Assembly: GCA_963762145.1 (NCBI GenBank) | Contig: CAVXJS010000009.1 | Coordinates: forward strand, 672,001-736,000 | Origin: an uncultured Candidatus Rokubacteria bacterium | GTDB taxonomy: Bacteria > Methylomirabilota > Methylomirabilia > Rokubacteriales > CSP1-6 | DNA: 64,000 bases | Direction: 5' to 3' | Shown here: in pieces, positions 10,651 through 31,996 of the stretch | Layout: every line of letters starts with the position of its first letter | Position numbering within the stretch: the first letter of the stretch is position 1 | Position numbers and translations under genes: made by a program | The notes under the pieces: model-generated | The model's input: the letters and a program-made list of their open reading frames with translations, nothing else | The model's database searches: none | What the model was told of the DNA's origin: nothing

Positions 10651-10778
10651 TCAGTTCACTCTCAAGATCTCGGGCCGCTATTGGACATTGGTCTGATCCG
10701 AAGCGTGACTCTCGAGCGTGGACGCCGCTCGTTGCGTGTTGTCAGGGCGCTGCTACAATACGAGCGAACCCGCAGGCC

Positions 10779-17132: not shown

Positions 17133-19202
17133 GTGAGCCCGACGGGACAGCAGACAGGACCCAAGAGCAATCCCGTGCCCCCCCCCACCCGGCCTGGAGC
17201 CACGAAGGGCCCCCCGCCCGCAAAGATGCCGCCGCGCAAGATGTGGCTGTGGTTCCTGCTGGTCCTGGTTGCGAACTTCTTGCTGGTGAGGCTGATGGCA
17301 CCCGGCGCGGAAGCACCGGTCACCGTGCCCTATACCTTGTTCAAGGAGGAGGTCAGGAAGGGCAACGTCCAGTCGATCTACAGCCGGAGCGACACCATCA
17401 CGGGCCGGTTCAAGGCGCCCGTCACCTACCCGCCGGCGGGCGACAAGAGTGCGGCACCGAAGGCCGAGCCCCAGTCGACGGCCGACCGCGCAGCGGCGCC
17501 CGCCAGCCCGCCCAAACCGGCGAGCTCCTTCGCGACCACGCTGCCCTCCTTCGTGGACCCCGGTCTGGAAGCCTTCCTGATCGATCACGGGGTCGAGATC
17601 AGCGCCAAGCCAATCGAGGAAGGCGGCAGCTCCTGGTCGACGCTCCTGTTCGGATTCGGTCCGGCCCTGCTCTTCATCGGCTTCTACTTCTGGATGTTCC
17701 GGCGGGCCCAGCAGGGCGGCGGCATGGGCGGCGGGCTCATGGGTATCGGCAAGAGCAAGGCGCGTCGCTACGACCAGGAGCAGGACACGAAGGTCACCTT
17801 CGACGACGTCGCCGGCATCGACGAGGCCGAGAACGAGCTGATCGAGATCGTGGACTTCCTCAAGGACCCTCCGAAGTACACCCGCCTGGGCGGGACCGCT
17901 CCGAAAGGCGTGCTGCTGGTCGGCGCGCCCGGAACCGGGAAGACCTTGCTGGCGAAGGCGGTCGCGGGCGAGGCGGGAGTGCCGTTCTTCTCGATGAGCG
18001 GCTCGGAGTTCGTGGAGATGATCGTGGGAGTGGGAGCCGCCCGGGTCCGCGATCTCTTCAAGCAGGCGCGCGAGCACGCGCCGGCGATCATCTTCATCGA
18101 CGAGCTCGATGCCATCGGGCGCGCGCGCGGCCAGGTCGTGATCGGCGGCTCGAGCGAGCAGGAGCAGACGCTCAACCAGATCCTCACCGAGATGGACGGC
18201 TTCTCCAGCCGCGAGGGTATCATCGTGCTGGCCGCGACCAATCAGCCCGACGTGCTCGACAAGGCGCTCCTGCGGCCCGGACGCTTCGACCGACGCGTGG
18301 TGGTGAACCTGCCGGACAAGACCGGGCGCGAGGCGATCCTCAAGGTTCATACGCGCCAGGTACCCCTCGCGAGCGACGTGAGCCTGGGAGACCTCGCCGC
18401 CACGACGCCGGGATTCTCGGGGGCCGACCTGCGGAACCTCGTCAACGAGGCGGCGCTGCTGGCGGCGCGGCGCGGGCAGAACGAGGTCCATCACAAGGAC
18501 TTCCTGGACTCGCTGGAGAAGATCGTGCTCGGGCCGGAGCGGCCGCTCCTGCTGAGCCGCGCCGACAAGGAGCGCATCGCCTACCACGAGGGCGGACACA
18601 CCATCCTGGGCCTGGTGGTGCCGGGCGCGGATCCGGTGAACCGGGTGACGATCGTGCCGCGCGGGCAGGCCCTCGGGGTGACGTATCAGCGCCCCGACAG
18701 CGACCGCTACAACTATCCGGAGGCCTACCTGCGGGGGCGGATCGTCGGAGCACTGGGCGGCCGGGCGGCCGAGGAGATCGTCTACGGTACCAAGACGACC
18801 GGGGCCGAGAGCGACATCGAGCAGGCCACCTCCCTGGCCCGGCGGATGGTCACGCGCTGGGGCATGAGCGAGCGAGTCGGGCTGGTGCAGCTCGCGCCGC
18901 GGGAGAATCCCTATCTGGGTGGCTCGGGGGGGTACACCGGCGAGAAGCCGTTCAGCGAGGCGACGGCCGAGGCCATCGATGCCGAGGTGCTCAAGATAAT
19001 CAACGAGAGCCACGAGGAGGCCAGGCGCCTCCTGACCGCGCACCGCAAGCAGCTCGACGCGCTCGCGGAAGCCCTGGTGGCGCGGGAGACCCTCAACGAG
19101 CAGGAGATACTCGAGGTCACGGGGCTTCCGCCTGCCCCGCCGCTGGACACCGCGATGCGGCCCGTCGCCGGCGGCGGAAGTCACAACTCGGGGGGCGCGT
19201 GA
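17133..19202 (+). CDS. ftsH: ATP-dependent zinc metalloprotease FtsH
   Basis: Two TM segments, [20 protein letters not shown]; AGGAG RBS before GTG 17133. Confidence 0.96.
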
Positions 19203-19341
19203 AGGGGCGCTGAACGGGACGTCGTGAGCCCCCTGCCGCTAGTCCCTGGTCCTCCGCTAGTTCGGCTGCTCGCGTCCGAAGGCTGCGCTAGCTCGGCGGC
19301 AGGGTGCTGGGCGCTCGGCCTTACCACGGTTCGGTGAATTG

Positions 19342-19593
19342 TCACTGAGTCCTCGCTTTCTGATACCGCTGTGCGTACTCAGCGCGCCGGGCGGCCTCTT
19401 GCAATTCCTGGTATGCGCGGCTTTCGGCTCTCTCCCGCTCTTTCTTGTAGGACTTATGGTCCGCGCCCAGTGAGGTGTGGACGGGCGTGGGCCTCGCGAC
19501 CACGAGGATGACTGCAACCACCACCACTACCCCGAGGCCCATCATCAGTGAGCGAATCTCTCCCGGATTAGGAATTTTCAACTGGAGGATCAT
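19342..19593 (-). CDS. Small single-TM hypothetical protein with charged helical tail
   Basis: LGVVVVVAVILVV then KKERERAESRAYQELQEAARRAE. Confidence 0.5.
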   Translation of the reverse strand: MILQLKIPNPGEIRSLMMGLGVVVVVAVILVVARPTPVHTSLGADHKSYKKERERAESRAYQELQEAARRAEYAQRYQKARTQ

Positions 19594-19707
19594 GCGGAGA
19601 CCTTCACGATCGATCGTCGTCGTCCATGTCTTCGACGAATGAGAACGTTACGCTGAAGAGGTCAATCGACGGTCCGCGTTGGGACTGTTGCTCCGGCGTG
19701 AGTATCT

Positions 19708-20031
19708 TCACGCCGTCTTCCGGCGAGCAAGAGATTCCTCCCGCCAGGGCTTGTAACACGTCTCGTGCGCGTGAAAGAACACCCCGGCGCCTTCCACTTC
19801 GCGCTCGACGTCGGCCGGCTCGATCGGGCTCCGGCAGACGACGCACGGTCGGCCCGTCCCCCGATGGGACTTGGAGATCCCCTGAACGGGAGGTAACCGG
19901 CCGTCCGACAACTGGGCCTCTATGCGCTGCCTCAACGCATCGTCGGAAACGCAGGCCGCTCGCCACTGAGCGGCCGCCAGGTTTTGCTCGCGGACAATGT
20001 ATCCGTCAAGCATCCGGGCTTGGCCGCTCAT
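19708..20031 (-). CDS. Small zinc-finger protein (GxGxxCxxC...HxxC..W)
   Basis: ATGA overlap with the upstream paralogue; LSDGRLP...GTGRPCVVC...HAHETCYKPW. Confidence 0.75.
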   Translation of the reverse strand: MSGQARMLDGYIVREQNLAAAQWRAACVSDDALRQRIEAQLSDGRLPPVQGISKSHRGTGRPCVVCRSPIEPADVEREVEGAGVFFHAHETCYKPWREESLARRKTA

Positions 20032-20276
20032 GTTCGCCCCGGGGCGCAGCGCTCCTCGTCCCATAGGTGGAAGCACGCCACGTGAAACTGAATCCCTTTG
20101 CCACCCGTCGTGCTGACCCCTTCCATGACAAACTGCGCCTTGCTGATGAGGTCCTCACAGGCGTCACACGTTTCACCGGCACCAGCACCGCCCCAAACGC
20201 GGGGGATACTGTTTTGCGGCAGGCGACCGTCGGCGAGCTTGCTTTGGATCAGGAGACGAAGGGCGGTCTGCTCCAT
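20028..20276 (-). CDS. Small zinc-finger protein (GxGxxCxxC...HxxC..W)
   Basis: AAGGAG RBS; LADGRLP...GAGETCDAC...FHVACFHLW. Confidence 0.8.
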   Translation of the reverse strand: MEQTALRLLIQSKLADGRLPQNSIPRVWGGAGAGETCDACEDLISKAQFVMEGVSTTGGKGIQFHVACFHLWDEERCAPGRT

Positions 20277-20383
20277 GAAGGACTCCTTGGGTGCGGCTCC
20301 GGCGCCGGACTAGGCGAGCCAGATTCACCAGGGTCTTGGCGCAACCGCCGCCAACCCAAGAAGGCCGAGGTGCAGGCCTATTG

Positions 20384-20430
20384 ATTCTGTCGCGTTCGGC
20401 CCGCAGCCGCCTATTGGACGTTGGTCCAAT
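20384..20430 (-). promoter_or_regulatory. TGGAC-N4-GTCCA operator with promoter
   Basis: ATTGGAC-GTTG-GTCCAAT (20413-20430); TAGGCG-18-CAGAAT on the minus strand. Confidence 0.7.
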
Positions 20431-20510
20431 GGCCGCTTCGCGACAGGTTGGCCACCGCTTAGGGCAAAGCTACTAACTCGCCCCCCAGAACGTGCCCCCG
20501 CTGGCTCGCA

Positions 20511-20747
20511 TCATGACTCCTGCGCTTGAAGTCTTGCGGCGTCCTCTCGCCAGAGAGTGAAGCACGCCTGATGGAAGACCCCGCGCCGGGACTCGACCTC
20601 CACCTCGACCTCGGTGTCCGGGGGGCGGATGACCACGTGGCATACAGCACAATGTCCGCCTCGTCCCCGCCCGACCCGGCCTCCCGTAATGGACTTCGGC
20701 GACGCGCTTTGAATCCTTGCCGTAACGGATTGATCGAGAGTGCTCAT
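20511..20747 (-). CDS. Small zinc-finger protein (GxGxxCxxC...HxxC..W)
   Basis: GGAGGGAG RBS; GRGGHCAVC...FHQACFTLWREDA. Confidence 0.75.
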   Translation of the reverse strand: MSTLDQSVTARIQSASPKSITGGRVGRGRGGHCAVCHVVIRPPDTEVEVEVESRRGVFHQACFTLWREDAARLQAQES

Positions 20748-20796
20748 CGGCTCCCTCCCACTGGCGTGATGGCCGGCGCCCGAAACCCGCTTCGGG

Positions 20797-21087
20797 TCAT
20801 GCTTCTCTGGGGACTGCCGCCGGGCGAATCGCTTCCTCTCCAGCCTGGAGAGCCTCGGTGACATGCTGCTTCGTGTCCTGCAAGAAATCGTCGGCCCGAC
20901 GCAGGGCATCCCCGCTGCGGTCCAGCACTCTTGCCGCTGTCTCCTCGACCGCCCGGACGCTTTCCGCGGCCTTCGTGCGCACCCCTCGCGTCCTCTCCTG
21001 CACGTACTCCTCCAGCTCCTGCCCCCACAGCCAGACGACGGCCGCCCCCATGATCGCTCCCAGAACAAAGACCTCACTGCTTCGCAT
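20797..21087 (-). CDS. YtxH-like small membrane-anchored stress protein
   Basis: GAGGAGG RBS; FVLGAIMGAAVVWLW followed by an amphipathic helical tail. Confidence 0.7.
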   Translation of the reverse strand: MRSSEVFVLGAIMGAAVVWLWGQELEEYVQERTRGVRTKAAESVRAVEETAARVLDRSGDALRRADDFLQDTKQHVTEALQAGEEAIRPAAVPREA

Positions 21088-21148
21088 CGTGGTCCTCCTC
21101 GTTTGCGAATAACAATCCCGTGACGGACTTCATGCTCGACGCCCCGGC

Positions 21149-21164
21149 TGCAACTTTGGGGCCG
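21149..21164 (-). promoter_or_regulatory. Possible sigma54 promoter
   Basis: CGGCCCCAAAGTTGCA (GG-N10-GC) about 60 bp upstream of the YtxH-like gene; no enhancer recognised. Confidence 0.3.
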
Positions 21165-21314
21165 TCAGATGGATCGGCGGCCCGCAATGAACTGGAACAC
21201 GACGACAATGACAGCGATCACCAACAGGAGATGAACCATCCCGCCGCCCGTGTAGGAGCTGCCCATGCCGAGCGCCCACAGTACTAACAGAATCACTGCA
21301 ACCGTCCACAGCAT
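21165..21314 (-). CDS. lmo0937-family small membrane protein (49 aa)
   Basis: AAGGAGG RBS; MLWTVAVILLVLWALG...GGMVHLLLVIAVIVVVFQFIAGRR. Confidence 0.9.
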   Translation of the reverse strand: MLWTVAVILLVLWALGMGSSYTGGGMVHLLLVIAVIVVVFQFIAGRRSI

Positions 21315-21402
21315 GATCCCCTCCTTACTGCGTCCCTGACACCGGCCCCCTCGCCCGAAGCGATTCGAGGGGCCGGTCAGGAAGCCGAAACCGCGCGAGC
21401 CG

Positions 21403-21489
21403 TTAACGGCGCCAGCGAGAGTATCCCCACCCCCCACCACCGAGGAGGAACAACACGACGAGAACGATCAGTATCGTCTCCGTGGACAT
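21403..21489 (-). CDS. 28-aa membrane microprotein (DUF3309-like)
   Basis: GGGAGGTG RBS; MSTETILIVLVVLFLLGGGGWGYSRWRR; below the ORF-track cutoff. Confidence 0.75.
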   Translation of the reverse strand: MSTETILIVLVVLFLLGGGGWGYSRWRR

Positions 21490-21546
21490 GATTCATCACC
21501 TCCCACTACTGCGTTGCGACTGCTACGACGGGCGTCATCGCCCATT

Positions 21547-21620
21547 AGTCTAGTCGCGACCATTTGCGGCGCCTATTGGACCTAGGTCCACTACGGAATC
21601 GAGATGCAGCCCACTAGAGT
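21547..21620. promoter_or_regulatory. TGGAC-N4-GTCCA operator with -10 boxes on both sides
   Basis: TATTGGACCTAGGTCCACTA (21574-21593); TAGACT on minus (21552-21547) and TAGAGT on plus (21615-21620), both 31.5 bp from the centre. Confidence 0.75.
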
Positions 21621-21660
21621 ACAAGCAACCAGTGATCGGCTCGGATGAGGGGTGTCCATT

Positions 21661-22362
21661 TCATGACGGGCCTCCCTGGCGTTCGTGCACCGCTCGCTCC
21701 ACATCCTCGCGGACGAGCAGACCGATCAGCTCGCCCGCCGAGGTCGTCACGAGAACGTTCGGGAGATCGCGCGTGGCCATGACCTTCGCCAACTCCTCGA
21801 TGGCCACGTGCGGCCGGTAGGTGCTCGGTCCGGGGCGCATGGCGGAACCGGCAGTAACCTCTCCGTCCCTGCCGAGTTGGTCGGCGCGGAGGAGTCCCAT
21901 GACGATTCGCTTCTCATTGACCACGACGCAGGCGTCCCATCCAGCGGCGCGAACGCGTGCCCGAACATCCCGGAGGGGTTCCTCGAGAAGGCAGGTCGGT
22001 ACCTCCCGGCGCGCGACCATCGCGGCAGTCGGTCGGCCGGCAGCCGCGCCTTCGGTCGGGAGCCCGGCCGCCATCCAGTCTGACTTGCCCGCCGCGTAGT
22101 CGTACACCTGGCCGAACCCGAGGCTTTCGAGCCGCCACGCGGCTCGTGCACTCAGGTCTCAGGCAGAGTCCCAGCAGTAGACGACTACGGGTCGCTCGGG
22201 AGCCAAGCTCGCCCGGACCTCGGAATCGATCTTCCGAAGTGGGATGTGCATCGCGCCCGGCAGATGCTGCTCGTCGAACTCCTCTTTGGGCAGTACCTCG
22301 ACGAGCTGCGCACCCTGTGCTACCAGTTGCTGTGCGGCCTCGCGTCCGATTTCAGTCGGCAT
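21661..22362 (-). CDS. Rhodanese + CBS-pair protein, probable selenoprotein (UGA at codon 68)
   Basis: VVVYCWDSA-TGA-DLSARAAWRLESLGFGQVYDYAAGKSDW read in one frame; two CBS domains follow; SECIS-like hairpin. Confidence 0.85.
22128..22146 (-). other. Bacterial SECIS-like hairpin
   Basis: CGAGCCGC-GTG-GCGGCTCG starting 13 nt after the UGA; loop begins GU after a 20-nt spacer. Confidence 0.7.
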
Positions 22363-22520
22363 CTTCCTTCTTCCTTTCGGATCTGGGATTGGAGCGAGGG
22401 CACCACGTGGCCACGCGCGGTGGATTGAGGGGCAGGAATCGCGCTCCTCGTCCCGGCGCGACGGGTCCCCCACGTGCGAACGCCCGGAGCGAGGCTGGGG
22501 ACGACCGTCATCTGATAGCG

Positions 22521-22569
22521 ATGCTAACCGCCTCCAGAGGAGCTGCCTAGTGGACCAAGGTCCACTAGG
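22521..22569 (-). promoter_or_regulatory. TGGAC-N4-GTCCA operator with promoter
   Basis: CCTAGTGGACC-AA-GGTCCACTAGG (perfect 11-2-11, 22546-22569); TAGGCA-17-TAGCAT. Confidence 0.8.
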
Positions 22570-22615
22570 TGAACCTGAGCGCGGCGACTAAGGACGAGGA
22601 GCGGCGTGGCTGCCG

Positions 22616-24415
22616 TCAACGCGCTCTCTCCAGGGCCACCGGCAAGGTGAAACGGAAGCTCGCCCCTCCCTGCGGATTGTTCTCGGCTTCCACCGCGCCG
22701 CCGTGCGCGTTGACGATGGTTCGCACGATGGCCAGCCCCATCCCCAGCCCCGCGCTCTTGGTCGTGTAGAGCGGCTCGAAGATGTGGTCGAGATCCTTCA
22801 GGGCGATGCCTGGCCCTGAGTCCTGAACCGTGACGTGGAGCTCGCCGGCGCCGTCTCGGGCCGTCCGGATGACGAGAGTGCGCGCCCCCGTGTGGGGTTC
22901 GCGCATCGCTTCGAGCCCGTTGAGCACCAGGTTGAGCACCACCTGCTGGAGCTGGACCCTGTCGCCGCGGGCGTTCGGAATGTCCGAGGAGAGCTCGAGG
23001 CTCATCGACACCTTGCGCATGATCGTATCGCTTCTCATGAGCCACGCGACCTCGGTGACGATCTCGTTGAGGTCGAGCGGCACGAACTCCGGCTCACCCT
23101 TCTTGAGGAGGGCGCGCAGTCCGCTGATCACGGCGGTGGCTCGTTCGTCGTCCGCCACGATGTCGCTCAGGATCACACGAATCTCGCGCACCTTCTCGAG
23201 ATCCACCACGTCGCCCTCGACAAGGAGTTGGGCCGCGTGCGCGTTGTTGAGGATCGCGGTCAGCGGCTGGCTCAGCTCGTGGGCCAGCGACGCGGTCAGC
23301 TCGCCCAAGGCGGAGACCCGGCCGATGTGAGCCAGGTCCTGCCGGAGCCGCACCGCCTCGAGCTCCCCCTGCTTGCGTGACAACGCATTGGCGAAGACCT
23401 CGCCGAGGAGGTGAAGCTGCTGGATCAGCTCGTCCGACTTCGCGCGCTCGGCCCCGACCGTGCTGAATATCAGCCCTCCCACCACGATTCCACTCACCAG
23501 GAGAGGCACCGCGACTTGGGGCTTGACCCGGTGCACGAGATAGCTCTGCCGATCCACCGCCGCCTCGTCCGGCAGCTCCTCGAGGTGCGATACGTTGATG
23601 ACCTCACCCCGCTGCAGCCGTGCCGTCATCCACGGAAACTCACCCATCTCCACCCATTCCTCGACCGCCCAGGAACGGGTGGCCGTGCCGTCCCGGGTGA
23701 ACTCGATGAGGCTGCCGCGATCGACCCCCAGGAAATCGACAACCTGGCGAAGCCCTCGCTGGACCGCTTGGTCGAAATCGGCAGCTGACAGATGGCTGAA
23801 TGCGGTCGCCAGGGAGGACAGGAGCTTCTCGAAGCGCAGCCGCTCGGCGAGCGATAGCTCCATCCGCCGGCGATCCAGGATCCCGGCGAAGGCCTCGCTG
23901 AGGAGGCGGAGCCGCCCCACCAGGTCGTCCGGCCAAGCGTGGCCGTCACGAACGGAGGCGAAGGAGAGCACCCCGAGGATGGGTCCCCCGGTGCGCAGGG
24001 GGATCAACACTTGCGAGCGCGTGCCCACGCGCTCCCAACTGGCCCGATCGATCGCGGCCGCCTTTGGCAGCTCGGCGAGTCGAGAGAATCGGACAACCTC
24101 CCCTTCCCGTAGTCTCCCCGATACCCAGGGGAACAGGTCGGCGGCCGTGACCTGCTCCTCGAGGCCCGGCCGTGCCCACGAGAGGCGGAGCCTCGGCCTG
24201 CCTTCGGCGTGCTCGTCGAGCCCGCCTCGATCCACGCCCAGGAACGTGACCACCTGCTGTAGTGCGCGCTCGATCGCCACGCCAGTGTCGGGCGCGCTCA
24301 CGTGAATCAACCCGGCGGACAGCTCCGAGAGGAGCGTCTCGAAGCGCAGGCGGTTCGCCAGCAGGAGCTTCGTCGACCGGCCCGTCCGCCGGCGAGCCAA
24401 ATCGCGGCGTTTCAC
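22616..24415 (-). CDS. Cytoplasmic histidine kinase with two GAF-like repeats (FixL/NodV-type kinase core)
   Basis: Repeated RLRFETLLSELS / RLRFEKLLSSLA; LAHIGRVSALGELTASLAHELSQPL; GDRVQLQQVVLNL; GLGMGL; no TM segment. Confidence 0.92.
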   Translation of the reverse strand: MKRRDLARRRTGRSTKLLLANRLRFETLLSELSAGLIHVSAPDTGVAIERALQQVVTFLGVDRGGLDEHAEGRPRLRLSWARPGLEEQVTAADLFPWVSGRLREGEVVRFSRLAELPKAAAIDRASWERVGTRSQVLIPLRTGGPILGVLSFASVRDGHAWPDDLVGRLRLLSEAFAGILDRRRMELSLAERLRFEKLLSSLATAFSHLSAADFDQAVQRGLRQVVDFLGVDRGSLIEFTRDGTATRSWAVEEWVEMGEFPWMTARLQRGEVINVSHLEELPDEAAVDRQSYLVHRVKPQVAVPLLVSGIVVGGLIFSTVGAERAKSDELIQQLHLLGEVFANALSRKQGELEAVRLRQDLAHIGRVSALGELTASLAHELSQPLTAILNNAHAAQLLVEGDVVDLEKVREIRVILSDIVADDERATAVISGLRALLKKGEPEFVPLDLNEIVTEVAWLMRSDTIMRKVSMSLELSSDIPNARGDRVQLQQVVLNLVLNGLEAMREPHTGARTLVIRTARDGAGELHVTVQDSGPGIALKDLDHIFEPLYTTKSAGLGMGLAIVRTIVNAHGGAVEAENNPQGGASFRFTLPVALERAR

Positions 24416-24643
24416 CTCAGCTATCTCTCGGCGCGCAAGCGCCAGGCTTCGGATTCTGGCGCCACACGAGATAACACGTCAGGTGGGCCACTGCCGCCCC
24501 TTGCGCTCCTTCGATGCAGTCGCGCTGCCAGTTCGGGATCAACCCCTGGCTGGCCGGTCAGGCCTCGTGACGTTCTTCGACGTCCGCCCCGCCAGGCCTT
24601 CAGCCACCGAATTCCAGCAACCGGGCCACGGCACACTAGGCCG

Positions 24644-24649
24644 ATTATA
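24644..24649 (-). promoter_or_regulatory. Consensus -10 box upstream of the kinase
   Basis: TATAAT on the minus strand about 230 bp upstream of 24415. Confidence 0.4.
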
Positions 24650-24789
24650 CCCCTCACCCATGATTTACGAGAGGTTGCACGCGATAGACAGTCGCACAAT
24701 GGCGTCAGGATCGACGGTCGCGGCCGGGGATGCTGGGTGATGCTGCAGTGAACTCGAAAGCAGGTCAGTCCACCAAACCGGGGGCAACT

Positions 24790-24979
24790 CTAGAGTTCAC
24801 GGCCTGGTCGGGCTTGCCGCGCGGGAGCGCGGGGCTCCTGGCTTCGCCGAGACGTGAACGGTGTACCCTTTGAACCGGATGGGCGCGCTGATCTTCCTTC
24901 GGATGATCCCGCTCACACGCCCTGCCCCGGGGGTTCAGCTCACATGGTCACCGATCTTGAACGCGCCCGGCCTGGCCAT
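24790..24979 (-). pseudogene. DUF2945 (Hva1 Tudor-like) protein, frameshifted
   Basis: MARPGAFKIGDHVS then shifted NPGAGRVSGIIRRKISAPIRFKGYTVHVS; 3' end approximate. Confidence 0.7.
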
Positions 24980-24991
24980 CTCTTCCCTGTC

Positions 24992-25369
24992 CTAGGAGGC
25001 ACCGCCAAGGGTGAGCAGACAGGCGCTCTCATCGAGGGCCTCCACCTCATGCGCGACGGCTGCCTCCAGCACGACGAGCTCGCCGGATCCAAGCCGCTCC
25101 GCGCGGCCGCCAGCCCGAAAGGTCACGGAGCCGCTCAGGACATGGAAGGTCAGCGGCCCGGCGGTCTGATGCTCGGAGAGCGTGGTCCCCTTGCCGAGCA
25201 GCATCAGCACCACGCGAAGTGCGGGCTCCTTGACCAAGGTGATCGCGTTGCGTCCACTCGTACGCCATGTGGTCTCTTGCCTGAGCCGCTCCAGCTGCTC
25301 GCCGAGCCGCAGGCACTGGAGGGGAACCTCGACGGGGCGGGCCGGTCTCGCCTTCCACTCGTCCACCAT
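24992..25369 (-). CDS. Cupin-domain protein
   Basis: LSEHQTAGPLTFHVLSG...HEVEALDESACLLT. Confidence 0.88.
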   Translation of the reverse strand: MVDEWKARPARPVEVPLQCLRLGEQLERLRQETTWRTSGRNAITLVKEPALRVVLMLLGKGTTLSEHQTAGPLTFHVLSGSVTFRAGGRAERLGSGELVVLEAAVAHEVEALDESACLLTLGGAS

Positions 25370-25439
25370 GACTGTCTCCAATCTGCCGTTCTGTGAGAGT
25401 GCGAAGACACGCTGATAGCCCAAGTGTCGGCATCGCGTA

Positions 25440-26231
25440 CTACTTCTGCTGCCCGCGCGCCGATGTTGTTGCGCCGAGAAGAAGTCCCTCGAAACGCCGA
25501 GGAGCCTCAGGCTCGTTGGCCCTGACACTCCCGCCCCCGGCACGGGCCGACTGCCTCAGCCGTTCCGTCCGCATCCGTTCCATGAGCTGGGGGAACGAGG
25601 ACGTCCGCATGCTCGACGCGAACTGGCTCCGATATGTGGACACGAGACTCGTACCGTCCAACACGATGTCGTAGACAGCCCACCGCGAGCCGCGTTCGAG
25701 CAACTGATACTCGATCGAGATCCCGGAACCGGTGGCTGGGGTGACGAGGGAACGCACTCGAGCAAGAGATCCGGTGACCTCCTCGCTCAGGAATGCCACG
25801 CGCTCACCGGAGTACCGTTCCACGGCCGTCGCGTAAGCCTGGGTGAAGACGTCGGCGAACAGCCGAACGAACTCGTCCTGCTCCTGCGGCAGACAGTCTT
25901 TCGAATGCTGCCCCATTACCCGGCGGGCCATTTCGTTGAAGGCGAAGAGGTCGAGAGCGACGCGGCGGATCTGTGTGCGGCGGTCCTCGCTGCCGGCCAT
26001 ACTTACCGTCGGCGACTGGGTAATCGCGAGCACGCGCGAGACCGAGGACTTCACGAGGTCGAGGGGCCTGAGTGAGCCAGCGGCCGCTCCCGTGTCGTCC
26101 CCCGGCTGGGCGCCACCTACGATGCCCGCACTGCCGAGGTTGAGAGCAAGCACGAGAACCACGAGCGCGGACAGGCAACGCCCAGTGAGTCGCCAGCTTG
26201 CCAAGGGCGCTCGCGCCGGGAGAGGCCTCAT
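25440..26231 (-). CDS. MlaC/Ttg2D-family periplasmic binding protein (divergent)
   Basis: FAFNEMARRVMG...WAVYDIVLDGTSLVSTYRSQF. Confidence 0.85.
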   Translation of the reverse strand: MRPLPARAPLASWRLTGRCLSALVVLVLALNLGSAGIVGGAQPGDDTGAAAGSLRPLDLVKSSVSRVLAITQSPTVSMAGSEDRRTQIRRVALDLFAFNEMARRVMGQHSKDCLPQEQDEFVRLFADVFTQAYATAVERYSGERVAFLSEEVTGSLARVRSLVTPATGSGISIEYQLLERGSRWAVYDIVLDGTSLVSTYRSQFASSMRTSSFPQLMERMRTERLRQSARAGGGSVRANEPEAPRRFEGLLLGATTSARGQQK

Positions 26232-26240
26232 CGCAGTATG

Positions 26241-26294
26241 ACTCTAGCGTTCGTCAGCCGGCCCGGCCTATTGGACCTTGGCCTATTGGACCTT
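26241..26294 (-). promoter_or_regulatory. Duplicated operator half-site with promoter
   Basis: GGCCTATTGGACCTT twice (26265-26294); TAGGCC-18-TAGAGT. Confidence 0.65.
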
Positions 26295-26337
26295 GGGGCA
26301 CCCCCCTGCTCGTCGAGGCGCGCTCCAGCGCTTCGGC

Positions 26338-26919
26338 TCAGGAGGTGCCAGGGCCCTTGAGTCGTCGAACCAGCTCCCCGTACGAGGTCGTCCGGATGAC
26401 TCGGTCGAACTGAGACCGATAGCTCGCGATGAGGCTGACGTTCTCGACCAGAACGTCGTAGATAAGCCAACGATCCGCCTTCCGTAGCAGGCGCGACTCG
26501 ACTGGTATCTGCGTCCCCTTCTTGGTCACGATCACCGCCCGCACGATCGCATAGTCACCGTCGATCTTCTCACTCACATACTTGATCTGCTCGCCACCGT
26601 ACTCGCCGATCCGGGACAGGTACCCGCGCTCGAGAAGATCCTGGAACAACTGCACAAACTCCCCCTGCTCCGCCGCGGTGCGTTGCTGCCAGTGGAGCCC
26701 GAGGGCGCGCTTGGCGGCTTCTGTCACGTCGAACGCTTCGCCGGCGACCGTCCGCACCGCTTCCAGACGAGCCGAGGCCGTCAGCGTCGGGTTCTCCAAG
26801 GCCTTCATCACTTGATCGGTGTACGCGCGTAGCTGCTCGGTCGGCGAACTCGCCCATGCGTACCCCTCGAGACTCAGCGTGATGACCACCGTCAGCGCCA
26901 ACTGCCGCATGATTTTCAT
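26338..26919 (-). CDS. MlaC/Ttg2D-family periplasmic binding protein
   Basis: AGGAGG RBS; signal peptide; FDVTEAAKRALGLHW...WLIYDVLVENVSLIASYRSQF. Confidence 0.92.
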   Translation of the reverse strand: MKIMRQLALTVVITLSLEGYAWASSPTEQLRAYTDQVMKALENPTLTASARLEAVRTVAGEAFDVTEAAKRALGLHWQQRTAAEQGEFVQLFQDLLERGYLSRIGEYGGEQIKYVSEKIDGDYAIVRAVIVTKKGTQIPVESRLLRKADRWLIYDVLVENVSLIASYRSQFDRVIRTTSYGELVRRLKGPGTS

Positions 26920-26978
26920 GGTCCCTCCTGTTCGATCAGCTCGGTCTACTCTGGCGCAAACCTCTGCGCCTGATCGCG

Positions 26979-27098
26979 ACTCTAGCCGACGTGATCCCGC
27001 GCGCCTATTGGACCTTGGTCGCTGGTGACTCTCCACACTGGCGTGGCAGGTCGTTGGACCAAGGTCCGATAGCCTGGCCCTCGGCCGTCACCTAGACT
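26979..27098. promoter_or_regulatory. Divergent promoter pair, each with its own TGGAC-N4-GTC operator
   Basis: CCTATTGGAC-CTTG-GTCGC (27004-27022) with minus-strand TAGGCG-17-TAGAGT; TTGGAC-CAAG-GTCCGATAG (27054-27072) with plus-strand TAGCCT-17-TAGACT. Confidence 0.75.
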
Positions 27099-27154
27099 CG
27101 GAGTACGTGAACCATGAACAACAGAGGTGCACTGCCACCGAACGGGAGAGACTT

Positions 27155-27388
27155 ATGGCAACCAAGGTGAGAGTCAACCTAGCCAACGAGCAAGAATTGC
27201 TGGAGCTTCCAGGCGTCGGCCCTGCGGAAGCGGCCGCGATCGTCAGGTTCCGCTCGGCACACGGTCCCGTCAAGGACGCTGACCAGCTTGCCACAATCTT
27301 GATCGGGTTCCCGCTTGACGAAACGCTCCGAGAGCGTGCCGACTTCGCTCCCTCCGACAGCACAGCGCCCGAGGCACCAGGAGCCTAG
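27155..27388 (+). CDS. Stand-alone helix-hairpin-helix (ComEA-like) protein
   Basis: VNLANEQELLELPGVGPAEAAAIVRFRSAHGP. Confidence 0.85.
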   Translation: MATKVRVNLANEQELLELPGVGPAEAAAIVRFRSAHGPVKDADQLATILIGFPLDETLRERADFAPSDSTAPEAPGA

Positions 27389-27539
27389 CCCCCGAGTTTC
27401 CTCGCCGGTCGGCGCCACACCGGCGACACACCAGCTCACGCCGCTTCCCCTCTAACAGGAGCTCACAGATGGATGCGATTCAATCACCCGCGACACGGCT
27501 CGGCGCCTCTCCTCGCGCGCCCTCGGCGGGGGAACGGAC

Positions 27540-29375
27540 GTGAACAAGGGATGGGGGATCGTCGCGCTCGTCATCGTGGGCTTGTACTGGCTGCAGGCCG
27601 TGTTGATTCCGCTGGCGCTGGCCGTCCTGCTCACGTTTCTCTTGAGTCCCGTGGTGGGCACCCTCCAACGGCGAGGCCTGGGCCGGGTACCGTCGGTCCT
27701 CGTGACGGTCCTCCTCGCCCTCTCCATCCTGGGCGGGATTGGCTGGACGCTCACTCGCCAGATGGTGACGCTCGCCGACGAGCTGCCGCGGTACAGCCTG
27801 AACATCCACCAGAGAATCGCGGACCTTCGCGGGGCGAGCCAGGGTGGCTCCATGGAGAAGGTTCAGCAAGCGGTGGAGGACGTCGTCGGCGAGCTTCAGA
27901 AGACGGGCAAGGGGGGTGGGCCGGGTCCAAAGCCCCTCGCCGTGGTCCTGGAGCCCCCGTCCATCCTTTCCCACCTGCCAACCCTTCTCCAAGCGTTGGC
28001 AAGCGCGGGGGTCGTGACCGTGCTCATGATCTTCATGCTGCTCGAGCGCCGGGAGCTCCGGGATCGGGTCATCTTGCTGGTCGGGTATCGACGGATGACG
28101 GCGACGACGAGAGCGCTAGACGAAGCCGGGACGCGCATCAGCCGGTACCTGCTCATGCAATCCCTCATCAACGGCGGCTTCGGCGTGGCCGTGGGGATCG
28201 GCCTGTTCCTGATCGGGGTTCCCTACGCCGTCATCTGGGGGTGCCTGGCGGCCGCCCTCCGGTTCATCCCGTACTTGGGGGCATTCGTCGCGCTGCTCCT
28301 GCCCCTGGTCCTCAGCCTGGCAGTGTTCCCGGGGTGGCTCCAGCCGGCGCTGGTCGTCAGTCTGTTCCTCGTGCTGGAGCTGATCACCGGCTGGGTGATG
28401 GAGCCGTGGTTGTACGGTCAAAGTGCCGGGGTCTCGCCGGTTGCGCTCCTGATCGCGTTGACCTTCTGGACCTGGCTGTGGGGACCGGTGGGACTACTGA
28501 TCGCGACGCCCCTGACGGTCTGTCTCATCGTGCTCGGCAAGCATCTGCCCGCGCTGAGGGGCATCGTCGTACTCATGAGTGACCGCCCGGTCATCGAGGC
28601 CAAGGCGCGCTACTACCAGCGACTGCTCGCACGAGACCAGGACGAGGCGATCGACATCGTCGAGACCTCCGTGAACGCAGATGGACGGGAGTCGGTCTAT
28701 GATGCGGTGCTCCTCCCCGCGCTCTACTACGCCAAGCAGGACCGTGATCGCGGGCTGTTGAGCGAGGATGACGCTCAGTTCGTGGGACAGGCGACCCGAG
28801 AGATCCTCGACGTTCTCGCCCACGACCCGCCGGCGCCCTCCGAGAGGTACGGTGGGGACCTCTCGGTCAGCGATCCCGGCGTTACGCCGGTCCGGATCCT
28901 CGGGTGTCCCGCTCGAGACGAGACGGATGCCGTGGGGCTCGAGATGGTGCGACACCTGCTCGACCCGGCGCGGTACCAGATCGAGATCAGCGGAGCCGGG
29001 ATGCTCACCGCCGAAGTTGTCGCTCAGGTCGGCGCGGACCGCCCCACTCTCGTTTGCATCGGGGCGGTGGCCCCAGGAGGCTTGAGCCAGGCGCGGCATC
29101 TCTGCAAGCGCCTGCGTTCGCAGCATCCGGAGCTCAAGATCGTGGTCGGTCGCTGGGGCCTCCACGACGAGAAGGATACCGATCGCGAGCACCTGCTCGC
29201 GGCCGGGGCCGACTACGTCGAGACGACGGTGCTCGATACGCAACGAGCACTCGCGCAGGTGGGGCTCACGCTCGGGCGGCCCGCTCCGGAATCGCCACCC
29301 GCGCCGGTGCCCGAGATCGTGCCCTGGACTGCCCCGACGACGGTCACGGCGCTCGGGCGTGCCCAAGGCGCGTGA
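27540..29375 (+). CDS. AI-2E family transporter with C-terminal cytoplasmic Rossmann-like extension
   Basis: LRFIPYLG, EPWLYGQSAGVSP, WTWLWGPVGLLIATPLTV; YYQRLLARD; C-terminal IVVGRW. Confidence 0.9.
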   Translation: MNKGWGIVALVIVGLYWLQAVLIPLALAVLLTFLLSPVVGTLQRRGLGRVPSVLVTVLLALSILGGIGWTLTRQMVTLADELPRYSLNIHQRIADLRGASQGGSMEKVQQAVEDVVGELQKTGKGGGPGPKPLAVVLEPPSILSHLPTLLQALASAGVVTVLMIFMLLERRELRDRVILLVGYRRMTATTRALDEAGTRISRYLLMQSLINGGFGVAVGIGLFLIGVPYAVIWGCLAAALRFIPYLGAFVALLLPLVLSLAVFPGWLQPALVVSLFLVLELITGWVMEPWLYGQSAGVSPVALLIALTFWTWLWGPVGLLIATPLTVCLIVLGKHLPALRGIVVLMSDRPVIEAKARYYQRLLARDQDEAIDIVETSVNADGRESVYDAVLLPALYYAKQDRDRGLLSEDDAQFVGQATREILDVLAHDPPAPSERYGGDLSVSDPGVTPVRILGCPARDETDAVGLEMVRHLLDPARYQIEISGAGMLTAEVVAQVGADRPTLVCIGAVAPGGLSQARHLCKRLRSQHPELKIVVGRWGLHDEKDTDREHLLAAGADYVETTVLDTQRALAQVGLTLGRPAPESPPAPVPEIVPWTAPTTVTALGRAQGA

Positions 29376-29587
29376 AGGCCTCGAAAGGCGTGGAAGCCGC
29401 GGTGCGACTGAGCTATGCTCCGCCCACCACGATATTCATTCCTGACGACGTTGATTTGACGCGCTGAAGACTGCCTCCACCAAGGGAAGCTGCGGCAGCT
29501 CTGGTTGATCAGCCTTTCATACGGCTGCGCTCTGCAGGTTCTGATGAGCGCAACACGACCGACGATATCAGGGAAAGGGAGCCGGCA

Positions 29588-31996
29588 ATGAGAAAGGCGT
29601 TATCGGACAAGGAACTGAAATTGATCCATGCCTACTGGAGGGCGGCGAACTATCTCTCGGTGGGGCAGATCTATCTCTACGATAACCCGCTTCTGAAAAA
29701 GCCACTGACCAAGGAACATGTGAAGCCGAGGCTGCTGGGTCACTGGGGCACCACCCCGGGCCTGAATTTCATCTATGCCCATATGAATCGCGCGATCAAG
29801 GCACGGGACCTCAGCCTGATCTACATCATCGGCCCGGGTCACGGCGGTCCCGGCATCGTCGCCAATGCCTACATGGAAGGCACCTACTCGGAGGTGTATC
29901 CGAACATTGCACAGGACGAAGAGGGAATGAACCGGCTGTTCAAGCAGTTCTCCTTCCCTGGAGGCATTCCCAGTCACGTGGCACCCGAGACCCCCGGCTC
30001 GATCCACGAAGGCGGCGAACTGGGGTATGCGCTCTCTCACGCGTACGGGGCTGCGTATGACAATCCCGACCTGATCGTTGCCTGCGTCGTCGGCGACGGC
30101 GAAGCCGAGACCGGGCCCCTGGCAACCTCCTGGCATTCCAACAAGTTCCTCAACCCGGCGACCGACGGAGCAGTGCTGCCGATCCTCCACCTGAACGGGT
30201 ACAAGATCGCCAATCCTTGCGTGCTGGCTCGTATCAGCCACGAAGAACTGGATCAGCTCTTTCGCGGTTATGGTTACACACCCCATTTTGTCGAGGGCAG
30301 CGATCCGGCCAAGATGCACCAGCTCATGGCCGGCGCGGTGGACACCTGCATGGAGGACATCCGCCGCATCCAGACCCAGGCGCGGACGCGGGGTGTGAAG
30401 GCGCGGCCGCGCTGGCCGATGATCATCCTCCGTTCGCCGAAGGGGTGGACCTGCCCGAAGGAGATCGACGGTAAACGGACCGAGGACTACTGGCGCAGCC
30501 ACCAGGTCCCAATGGGTGAAATGCACGACAAGCCCGGGCACGTGAAGCTCCTCGAGAAATGGATGAAGAGCTACAAGCCGGAGGAGCTGTTCGACAAGAC
30601 TGGTCGGCTGAAGCCCGAGCTCGCTGATCTGCCGCCGAAGGGCAAGCGCCGCATGAGCGACAATCCGCACGCCAACGGCGGCCTTCTGCTCAAGGACCTG
30701 CTTCTACCGGACTTCCGCGACTATGCCGTCGAGGTCACGACACCGGGCGCCATCTCGATCGAGTCCACCCGCCTCATGGGGAAGTTCCTGCGCGACACGA
30801 TGAAGCTGAACATGGAGAGCCGGAATTTCCGTCTGTTCAGTCCGGACGAGAACAATTCAAACCGCTGGCAAGATGTGCTGGAGGTCACGAACCGCACGTG
30901 GATGGCGGATCGCTATCCATACGATGATCATCTGGCTCCGGACGGCCGCGTGATGGAGATGCTCAGTGAGCACCAATGCCAGGGGTGGCTGGAAGGGTAT
31001 CTCTTGACCGGGCGGCACGGATTCTTTTCCTGCTACGAGGCCTTCATTCATATCATCGACTCGATGTTCAACCAGCACGCCAAGTGGCTGAAGGTGTGCC
31101 ACGACATTCCTTGGCGTCGACCGATTGCCTCGCTCAACTATCTCTTGTCTTCCCACGTCTGGCGGCAGGATCACAACGGGTTCAGTCACCAAGACCCCGG
31201 ATTCATCGATCACGTGGTGAACAAAAAATCGGAGATCGTGCGTGTCTATCTGCCGCCGGATGCGAACACTCTGCTGTCGGTCACCGATCACTGTCTGCGG
31301 AGCCGTAACTATGTGAACGTCGTCGTAGCGGGCAAGCAGCCTGCTCCGCAATGGTTGACGATGGACCAGGCGATCAAGCACTGCACGGCGGGCATCGGAA
31401 TCTGGGAATGGGCCAGCAACGACAAGGGAGGAGATCCAGATGTCGTTCTGGCCTGTTGCGGGGACGTGCCTACGCTGGAGACTCTGGCCGCGGTGGATCT
31501 GTTTCGTCAGCATCTCCCGGCGCTGAAGATCCGCGTCATCAACGTCGTCAACTTGATGACCCTGCAACCGCAGAAGGAGCACCCGCATGGCCTGTCCGAC
31601 CAGGACTTCGATGCACTGTTCACCAAGGACAAGCCGATCGTGTTTGCCTTCCACGGCTACCCGTGGTTGATCCATCGGCTCACGTACCGGCGGACCAACC
31701 ACGGAAACTTGCACGTGCGCGGCTACAAGGAGGAAGGCACAACGAGCACGCCGTTCGACATGGTGGTGATGAACGATCTCGACCGGTTTCACCTCTTCGG
31801 CGACGTGATCGATCGACTCCCGGAGCTCGGGTCCCGCGCCGCCTATGCCAAGCAAGCGGTCCGCGACAAGCTCCTCGAGCACAAGGAGTACATCGCCAAG
31901 CACGGTGAGGACATGCCCGAGATCACCGACTGGCAGTGGGGTCGGGTCAAGGCGCAAACGAGGCGGAGAACCACGACGGAGGGAGACAACGTCTAG
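29588..31996 (+). CDS. xfp: Xylulose-5-phosphate/fructose-6-phosphate phosphoketolase
   Basis: [49 protein letters not shown]. Confidence 0.97.

Follow-up and report, generated by a model that had tools for sequence, protein, structure and literature searches.

The window analyzed here is a 64,000-nucleotide stretch of the genome of an uncultured Candidatus Rokubacteria bacterium (G000:C9:672001-736000), and its part between 20,384 and 27,098 carries a repeated palindromic DNA box in front of a group of small-protein genes, a rhodanese-CBS gene, two MlaC/HpnM-like genes, and an HhH gene followed by an AI-2E-family transporter gene, with a tandem-GAF sensor kinase gene lying among them. A first interpretation of this DNA, made from the letters alone (hereafter the sequence-only reading), had described a TGGAC-N4-GTCCA operator at a fixed distance from the -10 boxes of six promoters and had proposed an undescribed local regulon. 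The boxes are given below with their scores in the matrix scan described later, and distances run from the box centre to the first base of the -10-like hexamer.

20409..20434, minus strand: box 1, full palindrome, 34.9 bits; -10-like CAGAAT at 20384-20389, 32.5 bp
21571..21596, minus strand: box 2, full palindrome, 35.6 bits; -10 TAGACT at 21547-21552, 31.5 bp
22545..22570, minus strand: box 3, full palindrome, 34.8 bits; -10 TAGCAT at 22521-22526, 31.5 bp
26266..26306, minus strand: box 4, 26.8 bits, with an overlapping duplicate of 17.6 bits (26293); -10 TAGAGT at 26241-26246, 32.5 bp
27003..27028, minus strand: box 5, 20.4 bits; -10 TAGAGT at 26979-26984, 31.5 bp
27049..27074, plus strand: box 6, 26.1 bits; -10 TAGACT at 27093-27098, 31.5 bp
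10676..10701 (centre 10688), plus strand: possible seventh box, 23.2 bits, status uncertain; 91 nt before a 743-aa open reading frame (ORF)

All six operator centres were found in the window where they had been placed, 6/6 sites carry GTCC(A/G)(A/C)TAG(G/C)C on the side facing the gene, and the distance to the -10-like hexamer is 31.5 bp at sites 2, 3, 5 and 6 and 32.5 bp at sites 1 and 4. Read towards the gene, sites 1, 2, 4 and 5 are GTCCAATAGGC, site 3 is GTCCACTAGGC and site 6 is GTCCGATAGCC, and the full box is a 26-bp palindrome, GCCTATTGGACC-WW-GGTCCAATAGGC. The operator as first described holds within one mismatch at 4/6 sites, but sites 4 and 5 are not palindromic. Site 5 (27015.5) has only its promoter-proximal half intact and its distal half decayed, and site 4 (26278.5) is a 15-bp direct duplication, in which CCTATTGGACCTTGG occurs twice, resulting in two proximal-type half-sites and no inverted repeat. 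The TAGGCN bases that had been taken for a weak -35 element are the outer flank of the proximal half-site, and the same bases are mirrored as GCCTA on the distal side. For the possible seventh box, the nearest -10-like hexamer (TACAAT) starts 66.5 bp from the centre, which is not class II geometry. The 10-base core was not significant alone, with 4 matches in the window against 2.45 expected and 19 of 100 shuffles reaching 4; genome-wide, the exact core occurs 19 times, and variants with spacers of 3, 5 and 6 occur 15, 8 and 13 times. The palindrome is real, and its significance comes from the extended 26-bp form.

A symmetrised matrix was built from the six sites and refined once on the 6.26-Mb genome, with the reversed genome as control. 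It found 62 sites of at least 15 bits against 7 in the control, and at 18 bits 44 against 3. The sites are intergenic in 58/62 cases, in a genome of which about 82% lies inside rough gene calls (binomial p = 7e-39), and a gene start pointing away from the box lies within 300 nt at 55/62. Of the 62 sites, 25 have a TANNNT hexamer starting at +31.5 and 8 have one at +32.5, with only 0-3 at each other offset from 13 to 79. The genome-wide scan with its spacing, which had been suggested as a check, thus revealed a non-random placement and a fixed -10 distance. Among 25 oriented sites, conservation is higher in the promoter-proximal than in the distal half-site, with T at +8 in 25/25, and the information content is about zero beyond +/-13 bp of the box centre. 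As the 62 sites form islands on at least 11 contigs, the regulon is genome-wide; the word local in the original proposal has to be dropped, with about 60 sites spread in this way and the box also accompanying relatives of the candidate regulator in records that carry the labels of several phyla.

The genome contains 8 GerE matches, and two of them lie in box islands. Judged from its sequence and surroundings, the most likely regulator of the box is a 209-aa protein encoded on contig C17, which is listed here together with the sensor kinase of the window.

G000:C17:39053-39682 (L001:9053-9682): candidate regulator, 209-aa REC+GerE protein (Pfam Response_reg 2.3e-26, GerE 6.7e-17)
22616..24415, minus strand: window sensor kinase, GAF-GAF-HisKA-HATPase, 599 aa

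The sequence of the candidate regulator shows the residue pattern DD...D56...T...K. Its closest solved relatives in a PDB search were StyR (1YIO, E 2.5e-53, residues 5-198) and FixJ (5XSO, 7e-37), and the same search gave NarL at 9.4e-15 and DevR (3C3W) at 5e-12. The best NCBIfam model was FixJ (NF006900) with 189.8 bits, below the equivalog cut-off of 255. The best box of the whole genome (37.7 bits) lies 133 bp upstream of this gene, which is adjoined, convergently, by a receiver-only gene and by a gene for a 621-aa GAF-GAF-HisKA-HATPase kinase, each with a box of its own. By its REC+GerE build, by StyR and FixJ as its closest relatives, and by the adjoining HisKA kinase, the C17 protein is a FixJ/StyR-type response regulator. 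A regulator of the FixJ/NarL superfamily, which the sequence-only reading had postulated, is thus available as a candidate.

Two paralogous regulators are encoded on contigs C15 and C11, each with a kinase gene nearby and a receiver-only gene just downstream. The boxes fall into sub-types by position +/-7, which is either T (TGGACC) or A/G (R), with 21 TT, 23 RR and 18 mixed sites (Fisher p = 0.002). T-type boxes occur around the C17 regulator and throughout the window, R-type boxes occur around the C15 regulator, and both boxes near the C11 regulator are R-type. This distribution suggests paralogue-specific sub-regulons with some overlap, and the R class may be under-sampled, because the matrix was seeded with T-type sites.

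The window kinase and the C17 kinase are 56% identical over their full length. Pfam recognized HisKA, not HisKA_3, in both, and the kinase transmitters are closest to that of FixL, with FixL chimeras as the best PDB matches (E ~1e-38). A sequence search for solved relatives of the GAF domains of the window kinase gave no match. Its AlphaFold model, with a mean predicted local distance difference test score (pLDDT) of 79.4, led in a fold search to phytochrome-type tandem GAF/PHY kinases, a likeness of the overall build only, and the fold matches of the model gave no hint of a ligand. The window kinase gene has no box upstream and no regulator gene adjoining. The proposed pairing of the regulator with this kinase therefore stands in part: the kinase family is linked to the regulator relatives and the transmitter is FixL-like, but no regulator gene lies beside the window kinase. 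On its downstream side follow box 3, which lies 52 nt past the kinase stop codon, and then the rhodanese-CBS gene. Kinases 84% identical to that of the window (L071:123-1919 and L088:2187-4001) are encoded immediately before a regulator gene in two related records, and in several relatives the orthologous MlaC pair adjoins the regulator gene. As the kinase and the MlaC pair of relatives adjoin the regulator gene, the window island looks rearranged.

Since the matrix was trained on this genome, the loci of relatives provided an independent test. The set comprised 80 loci (of about 420 related) around regulator relatives of 52-89% identity, with a total of 579,704 bp. The scan found 129 boxes against 1 in the reversed sequence, and at least one box in 64/80 loci. 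In 43 of the 79 loci with enough sequence, a box lies 0-200 nt past the stop codon of the regulator gene, often before a receiver-only gene. Of these 129, 72 have TANNNT starting at +31.5, 26 at +32.5 and 13 at +30.5, with 1-4 elsewhere, and a kinase of the same family as the window kinase is encoded in 45/80 loci, mostly directly upstream of the regulator. The motif is conserved, at the same spacing, in loci around relatives of the regulator, and its conservation near orthologous kinases had been suggested as worth checking. The loci keep the box at 40-71% G+C. According to the record titles, the closest regulator relatives belong to Candidatus Rokubacteria/Methylomirabilota, and among the titles of the 80 loci there are further bins labelled delta-proteobacterial, Gemmatimonadales, Planctomycetota, Terriglobia, Binatia and others, some of these phylum labels probably belonging to mis-binned sequences. 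The sequencing runs that contain the window stretch are soil metagenomes. Paired boxes before MlaC genes recurred at 5/5 of the closest orthologous loci (72-82% identity) and at 0/24 more distant MlaC loci.

Considering these results, we propose that the element is probably the box of a FixJ-like two-component activator, which would drive a genome-wide regulon of about 60 promoters. In this model, a dimeric response regulator of the FixJ/StyR branch (REC plus a GerE/LuxR-type helix-turn-helix) would bind GCCTATTGGACC-WW-GGTCCAATAGGC in the place of the -35 element, centred about 43.5 bp before a predicted start that lies about 7 nt after the -10. The phosphorylated dimer would recruit RNA polymerase to promoters in which a TAGNNT -10 is the only other element, which amounts to class II activation. 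Tandem-GAF FixL-type kinases, namely the C17 neighbour and its window paralogue at 22616-24415, would phosphorylate the regulator, and the box-driven receiver-only protein would supply feedback. The six window promoters would belong to the regulon of about 60 boxes, whose products would be mostly envelope and stress proteins. The class II geometry claimed for the six sites is borne out on a larger scale, with the box over the -35 position and, at 33 sites in this genome and 98 in relatives, a -10 offset of 31.5 or 32.5 bp. Similar arrangements have been reported: at PstyA, the high-affinity site from which StyR-P activates lies about 40 bp ahead of the start (PMC2442086), and a DosR box near -43.5 is used beside a suboptimal -35, where the DosR dimer contacts sigma region 4 and alpha (PMC13486717). 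The box with its spacing and distribution, its conservation next to the regulator gene, and the families to which the regulator and the kinases belong are shown by the sequences; that the C17 regulator binds the box, that it activates and does not repress, where transcription starts and what the physiological signal would be are inferred.

Several observations weigh against this model. Placed over the -35 position, a box would suit a repressor just as well. The box upstream of the C17 regulator lies about 57.5 bp from the -10 of the regulator's own TTGCCC-17-TATAGT promoter, which appears to be complete and self-sufficient, and this is not a class II distance. The recognition helices of the C17, C15 and C11 regulators are nearly identical, too similar for the box sub-types to be assigned to them, so any of the three might read the window's boxes, and cross-talk between the box sub-types is possible, because 18/62 boxes are mixed. 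Around the rhodanese-CBS orthologues, which come from another family of the order, a box within 1.5 kb was found in 0/5 cases; regulon membership thus appears fluid, and box 3 is without footprint support. The exact 14-mer was commoner in genomes with a close regulator homologue (30 relatives), as a trend only: control counts were 0-2 per genome, many genomes stood at the control level, the genomes are incomplete and kin are not independent. Finally, the gene calls came from our own rough codon-usage caller.

The same FixJ-like regulator might act as a repressor that blocks RNA polymerase at the -35 position until a signal removes it, which we consider unlikely, although it is the alternative that survives best. 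The box does overlap the -35 position, repression of nif promoters by a FixJ has been reported for Rhodopseudomonas palustris (PMC13327599), and StyR-P has been reported to repress from other sites too (PMC2442086). However, a spacing fixed to 1 bp at the 33 sites here and the 98 in relatives is what an activator in contact with the polymerase needs, not a repressor, and activation is favored over repression because of this constancy. Furthermore, no conserved -35-like element exists besides the box, and no canonical promoter was found in the region: a search of 19200-27600 for TTGACA/TATAAT-type promoters gave none, which is a weak result as shuffles give only 0.8.

Less probable than repression is that the activator model names the wrong protein and another factor reads the box, such as the Crp/Fnr-family protein at G000:C17:43183-43836, with the REC+GerE cluster merely a target. 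Crp/Fnr proteins also use palindromes near -41.5, and one box of the C17 island is followed by a Crp-type gene. Nevertheless, a Crp-type homologue was found in 0/80 loci with regulator relatives, and so was the LysR-type neighbour (0/80), whereas the box accompanies the regulator gene in records labelled as several phyla. The GGAC-N4-GTCC core is also of the NarL/FixJ-superfamily type, as in the reported DosR consensus string (PMC2703886, PMC2275270).

Orthology with the DosR/DevR-DosS/DosT hypoxia regulon, to which the core had pointed the sequence-only reading, is very improbable, and the likeness to DosR stands as one of core and position. DosS and DosT use HisKA_3, and the kinases here have HisKA and a FixL-like core. 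In the DosR system, a LuxR-type dimer is reported to occupy a GGAC-N4-GTCC palindrome near -43.5, as at hspX, with a poor -35 and a good -10 (PMC13486717), and the geometry here is alike. The tandem-GAF kinases, one beside the regulator and one an orphan, recall DosS and DosT, of which one is likewise unlinked. In contrast, the C17 regulator matches DevR only at E 5e-12 and StyR at 2.5e-53, which places it nearer to StyR/FixJ, and the box differs from the printed DosR consensus at 3/9 half-site positions. Set against that consensus, TTSGGGACTWWAGTCCCSAA, the core is common, and the positions beside the centre and outside the core differ; a minority of sites look more DosR-like, for instance C14:424792. 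No universal stress proteins, nitroreductases or alpha-crystallin occur among the annotated targets. The two systems are not orthologous by these comparisons, and they differ in the type of phosphotransfer domain, in the diderm soil host found here and in the target set. The DosR regulon is reported to include about 50 genes (PMC2275270), and DevR promoters are reported to need tandem boxes (PMC3177182), whereas most promoters here have one.

A dispersed repeat with no role in transcription, such as the end of a repetitive extragenic palindrome (REP) or of a miniature inverted-repeat transposable element (MITE) or a recombination site, would account for a palindrome in dozens of often clustered copies, but we give it almost no weight, as the box is not part of a longer repeat (information drops to zero beyond +/-13 bp), keeps a fixed distance to TANNNT, lies in intergenic DNA before outward-pointing gene starts at the 58/62 and 55/62 sites given above, and is kept beside one regulator gene in loci that range from 40 to 71% G+C.

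For the preferred reading, a FixJ-like two-component activator, the nearest described systems are StyS/StyR and FixL/FixJ. StyR is the closest solved relative of the C17 regulator and has the same REC+GerE build, but StyR governs one catabolic operon, whereas about 60 boxes occur here. StyS and TodS are reported to be large double kinases that sense aromatics (PMC4861429, PMC4321377), in contrast to the tandem-GAF kinases described here. FixJ is the second-closest solved regulator, the kinase transmitters are closest to FixL, and a receiver-only gene lies nearby here; the FixL sensor is of the PAS-haem type, whereas the sensors here are GAF-GAF. The motif reported for the fixK promoter of R. 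palustris, GTACGTAG (PMC13327599), is unlike the box. FixJ sensu stricto was ruled out by the 189.8 bits against a cut-off of 255, by the GAF-GAF sensors and by the different motif. The LuxR/TraR-type regulators offer a further parallel. In their class II promoters, a GerE-type dimer on a palindrome of about 20 bp (the lux box lies at about -42.5) replaces the -35 element; these regulators bind a ligand, unlike the phosphorylated receivers considered here. The StyR and TodT boxes probably share an ACC-N2-GGT centre.

The genes predicted to be controlled by the window's boxes are as follows.

20028..20276, minus strand: 82-aa CxxC...H..C protein, box 1 target, no Pfam or NCBIfam family
20511..21489, minus strand: operon of four small genes behind box 2
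20511-20747, minus strand: 78-aa CxxC protein of the box 2 operon, no Pfam or NCBIfam family
20797-21087, minus strand: 96-aa protein of the box 2 operon, no family
21165-21314, minus strand: lmo0937/DUF5670 membrane protein of the box 2 operon, 49 aa
21403-21489, minus strand: DUF3309 protein of the box 2 operon, 28 aa
21661..22362, minus strand: rhodanese-CBS gene with an in-frame TGA at 22159-22161, box 3 target
24992-25369, minus strand: cupin gene, after MlaC/HpnM-like gene 1 and with the MlaC/HpnM-like pair behind boxes 5 and 4
25440-26231, minus strand: MlaC/HpnM-like gene 1, box 4 target
26338-26919, minus strand: MlaC/HpnM-like gene 2, box 5 target
27155-27388, plus strand: HhH (ComEA-like) protein, box 6 target
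27540-29375, plus strand: AI-2E-family transporter with a B12-binding-like C-terminal domain, box 6 target

The 82-aa protein and the 78-aa protein (20511-20747) are paralogues sharing C-x2-C ... FH..CF.LW. On the opposite side of box 2, a second TAGAGT lies 31.5 bp off and faces the 3' end of the rhodanese-CBS gene, where a 45-aa ORF (21645-21782, plus strand) follows in the same direction; it could be an antisense or small-ORF promoter, or chance. The in-frame TGA of the rhodanese-CBS gene falls inside the rhodanese active-site loop, one in-frame TGA is present in 5/5 full-length orthologues from other genera, and a tRNA-Sec gene (anticodon TCA) lies on the same contig (C9:756629-756726). 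A GC-rich hairpin follows about 17 nt past the TGA, and a search of 18 same-genus genomes gave 0 matches to this gene. From these features, the rhodanese-CBS protein is likely a selenoprotein. The B12-binding-like domain of the AI-2E transporter scores below the Pfam cut-off (26.5 against 32.1 bits), and a second AI-2E gene elsewhere in the genome is also behind a box. For MlaC-like gene 1, taking the ATG at 26231 as the start would give a nearly leaderless mRNA, and the gene caller preferred a start at 26162.

MlaC-like proteins show an unusual expansion, with 14 matches in this genome against 5-12 in relatives, and at least six copies lie behind a box. Elsewhere in the genome, the boxed genes encode GroES/EL (twice), further MlaC/HpnM-like proteins, one of whose genes precedes that of an HpnN-like RND transporter, and DUF2147; OmpA, BON and glycine-zipper proteins; MscS, potassium-channel and bestrophin-like channels; and HdeA, a DegP-like protease, a patatin, a cytochrome P460, a sulfite-oxidase-like enzyme and a Crp-type regulator. 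According to a proposal made in a preprint, hopanoids are carried through the envelope by HpnM, which is MlaC-like, by HpnN and by a DUF2147 protein (PMC12324291). The annotations suggest that the regulon is an envelope and general-stress programme. The redox programme of the sequence-only reading was not upheld; what the targets suggest instead is envelope, osmotic or general stress.

Four RNA-labelled soil runs were compared with the window over 20000-27500 in the form of contigs, which can neither place start sites nor show induction and, as they are mostly 90-99% alike, come partly from relatives. Both the small-protein operon and MlaC gene 1 have coverage. At 21255-21505 it comes from contigs of three runs, which is weak evidence, and contigs from two studies end at 26189-26211, within the predicted transcript, with the bin 26275-26525 uncovered. 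The 575 bp at 24416-24991, from the cupin gene to the kinase start, are without a convincing ORF, box or Rfam match, and one RNA-run contig covers 24587-24778 inside this stretch. Rfam gave no match on 19000-30000 at E up to 0.1.

The claim that the regulon is undescribed is plausible to the extent of a few literature searches, which listed no paper on the box. Of the 25 top-ranked of 4,382 papers for three box 12-mers, none dealt with bacterial regulation; two of the 12-mers were absent from these 25, and the third occurs in a human-gene paper and its preprint; a search of the literature on response regulators of Rokubacteria returned nothing on this box or regulator. We judge the regulator-box pair and its regulon to be new, but of a kind whose mechanism is well known; the system would work like DosR and StyR and is orthologous to neither. 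As its mechanism would be that of a standard two-component class II activator, the understanding of such systems is unchanged.

A more far-reaching and tentative possibility, which we think rather less likely than its opposite, is that the box belongs to a switch for stress or dormancy that has gone unrecognized and that uncultured diderm bacteria of soil and groundwater have kept across several phyla. If true, this switch would consist of one or more tandem-GAF FixL-type kinases, a FixJ-like regulator, a box-driven receiver-only protein and the TATTGGACC-WW-GGTCCAATA box, and would correspond in function to the mycobacterial DosRST system. Envelope remodelling would proceed through HpnM/HpnN-type lipid trafficking, OmpA, BON and channel proteins, chaperonins would be induced, and a duplication in this genome would have given at least two regulators whose box specificity differs at +/-7. 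Rokubacteria/Methylomirabilota are abundant soil bacteria, and to our knowledge Rokubacteria have no cultured member, so that their regulation is readable from sequence only. A concrete and testable regulator-box pair, with a sharply defined box, about 60 predicted promoters and a precise promoter architecture, would provide a handle on the stress response of these organisms, on the genes that move together in it and on the kinases that feed into it.

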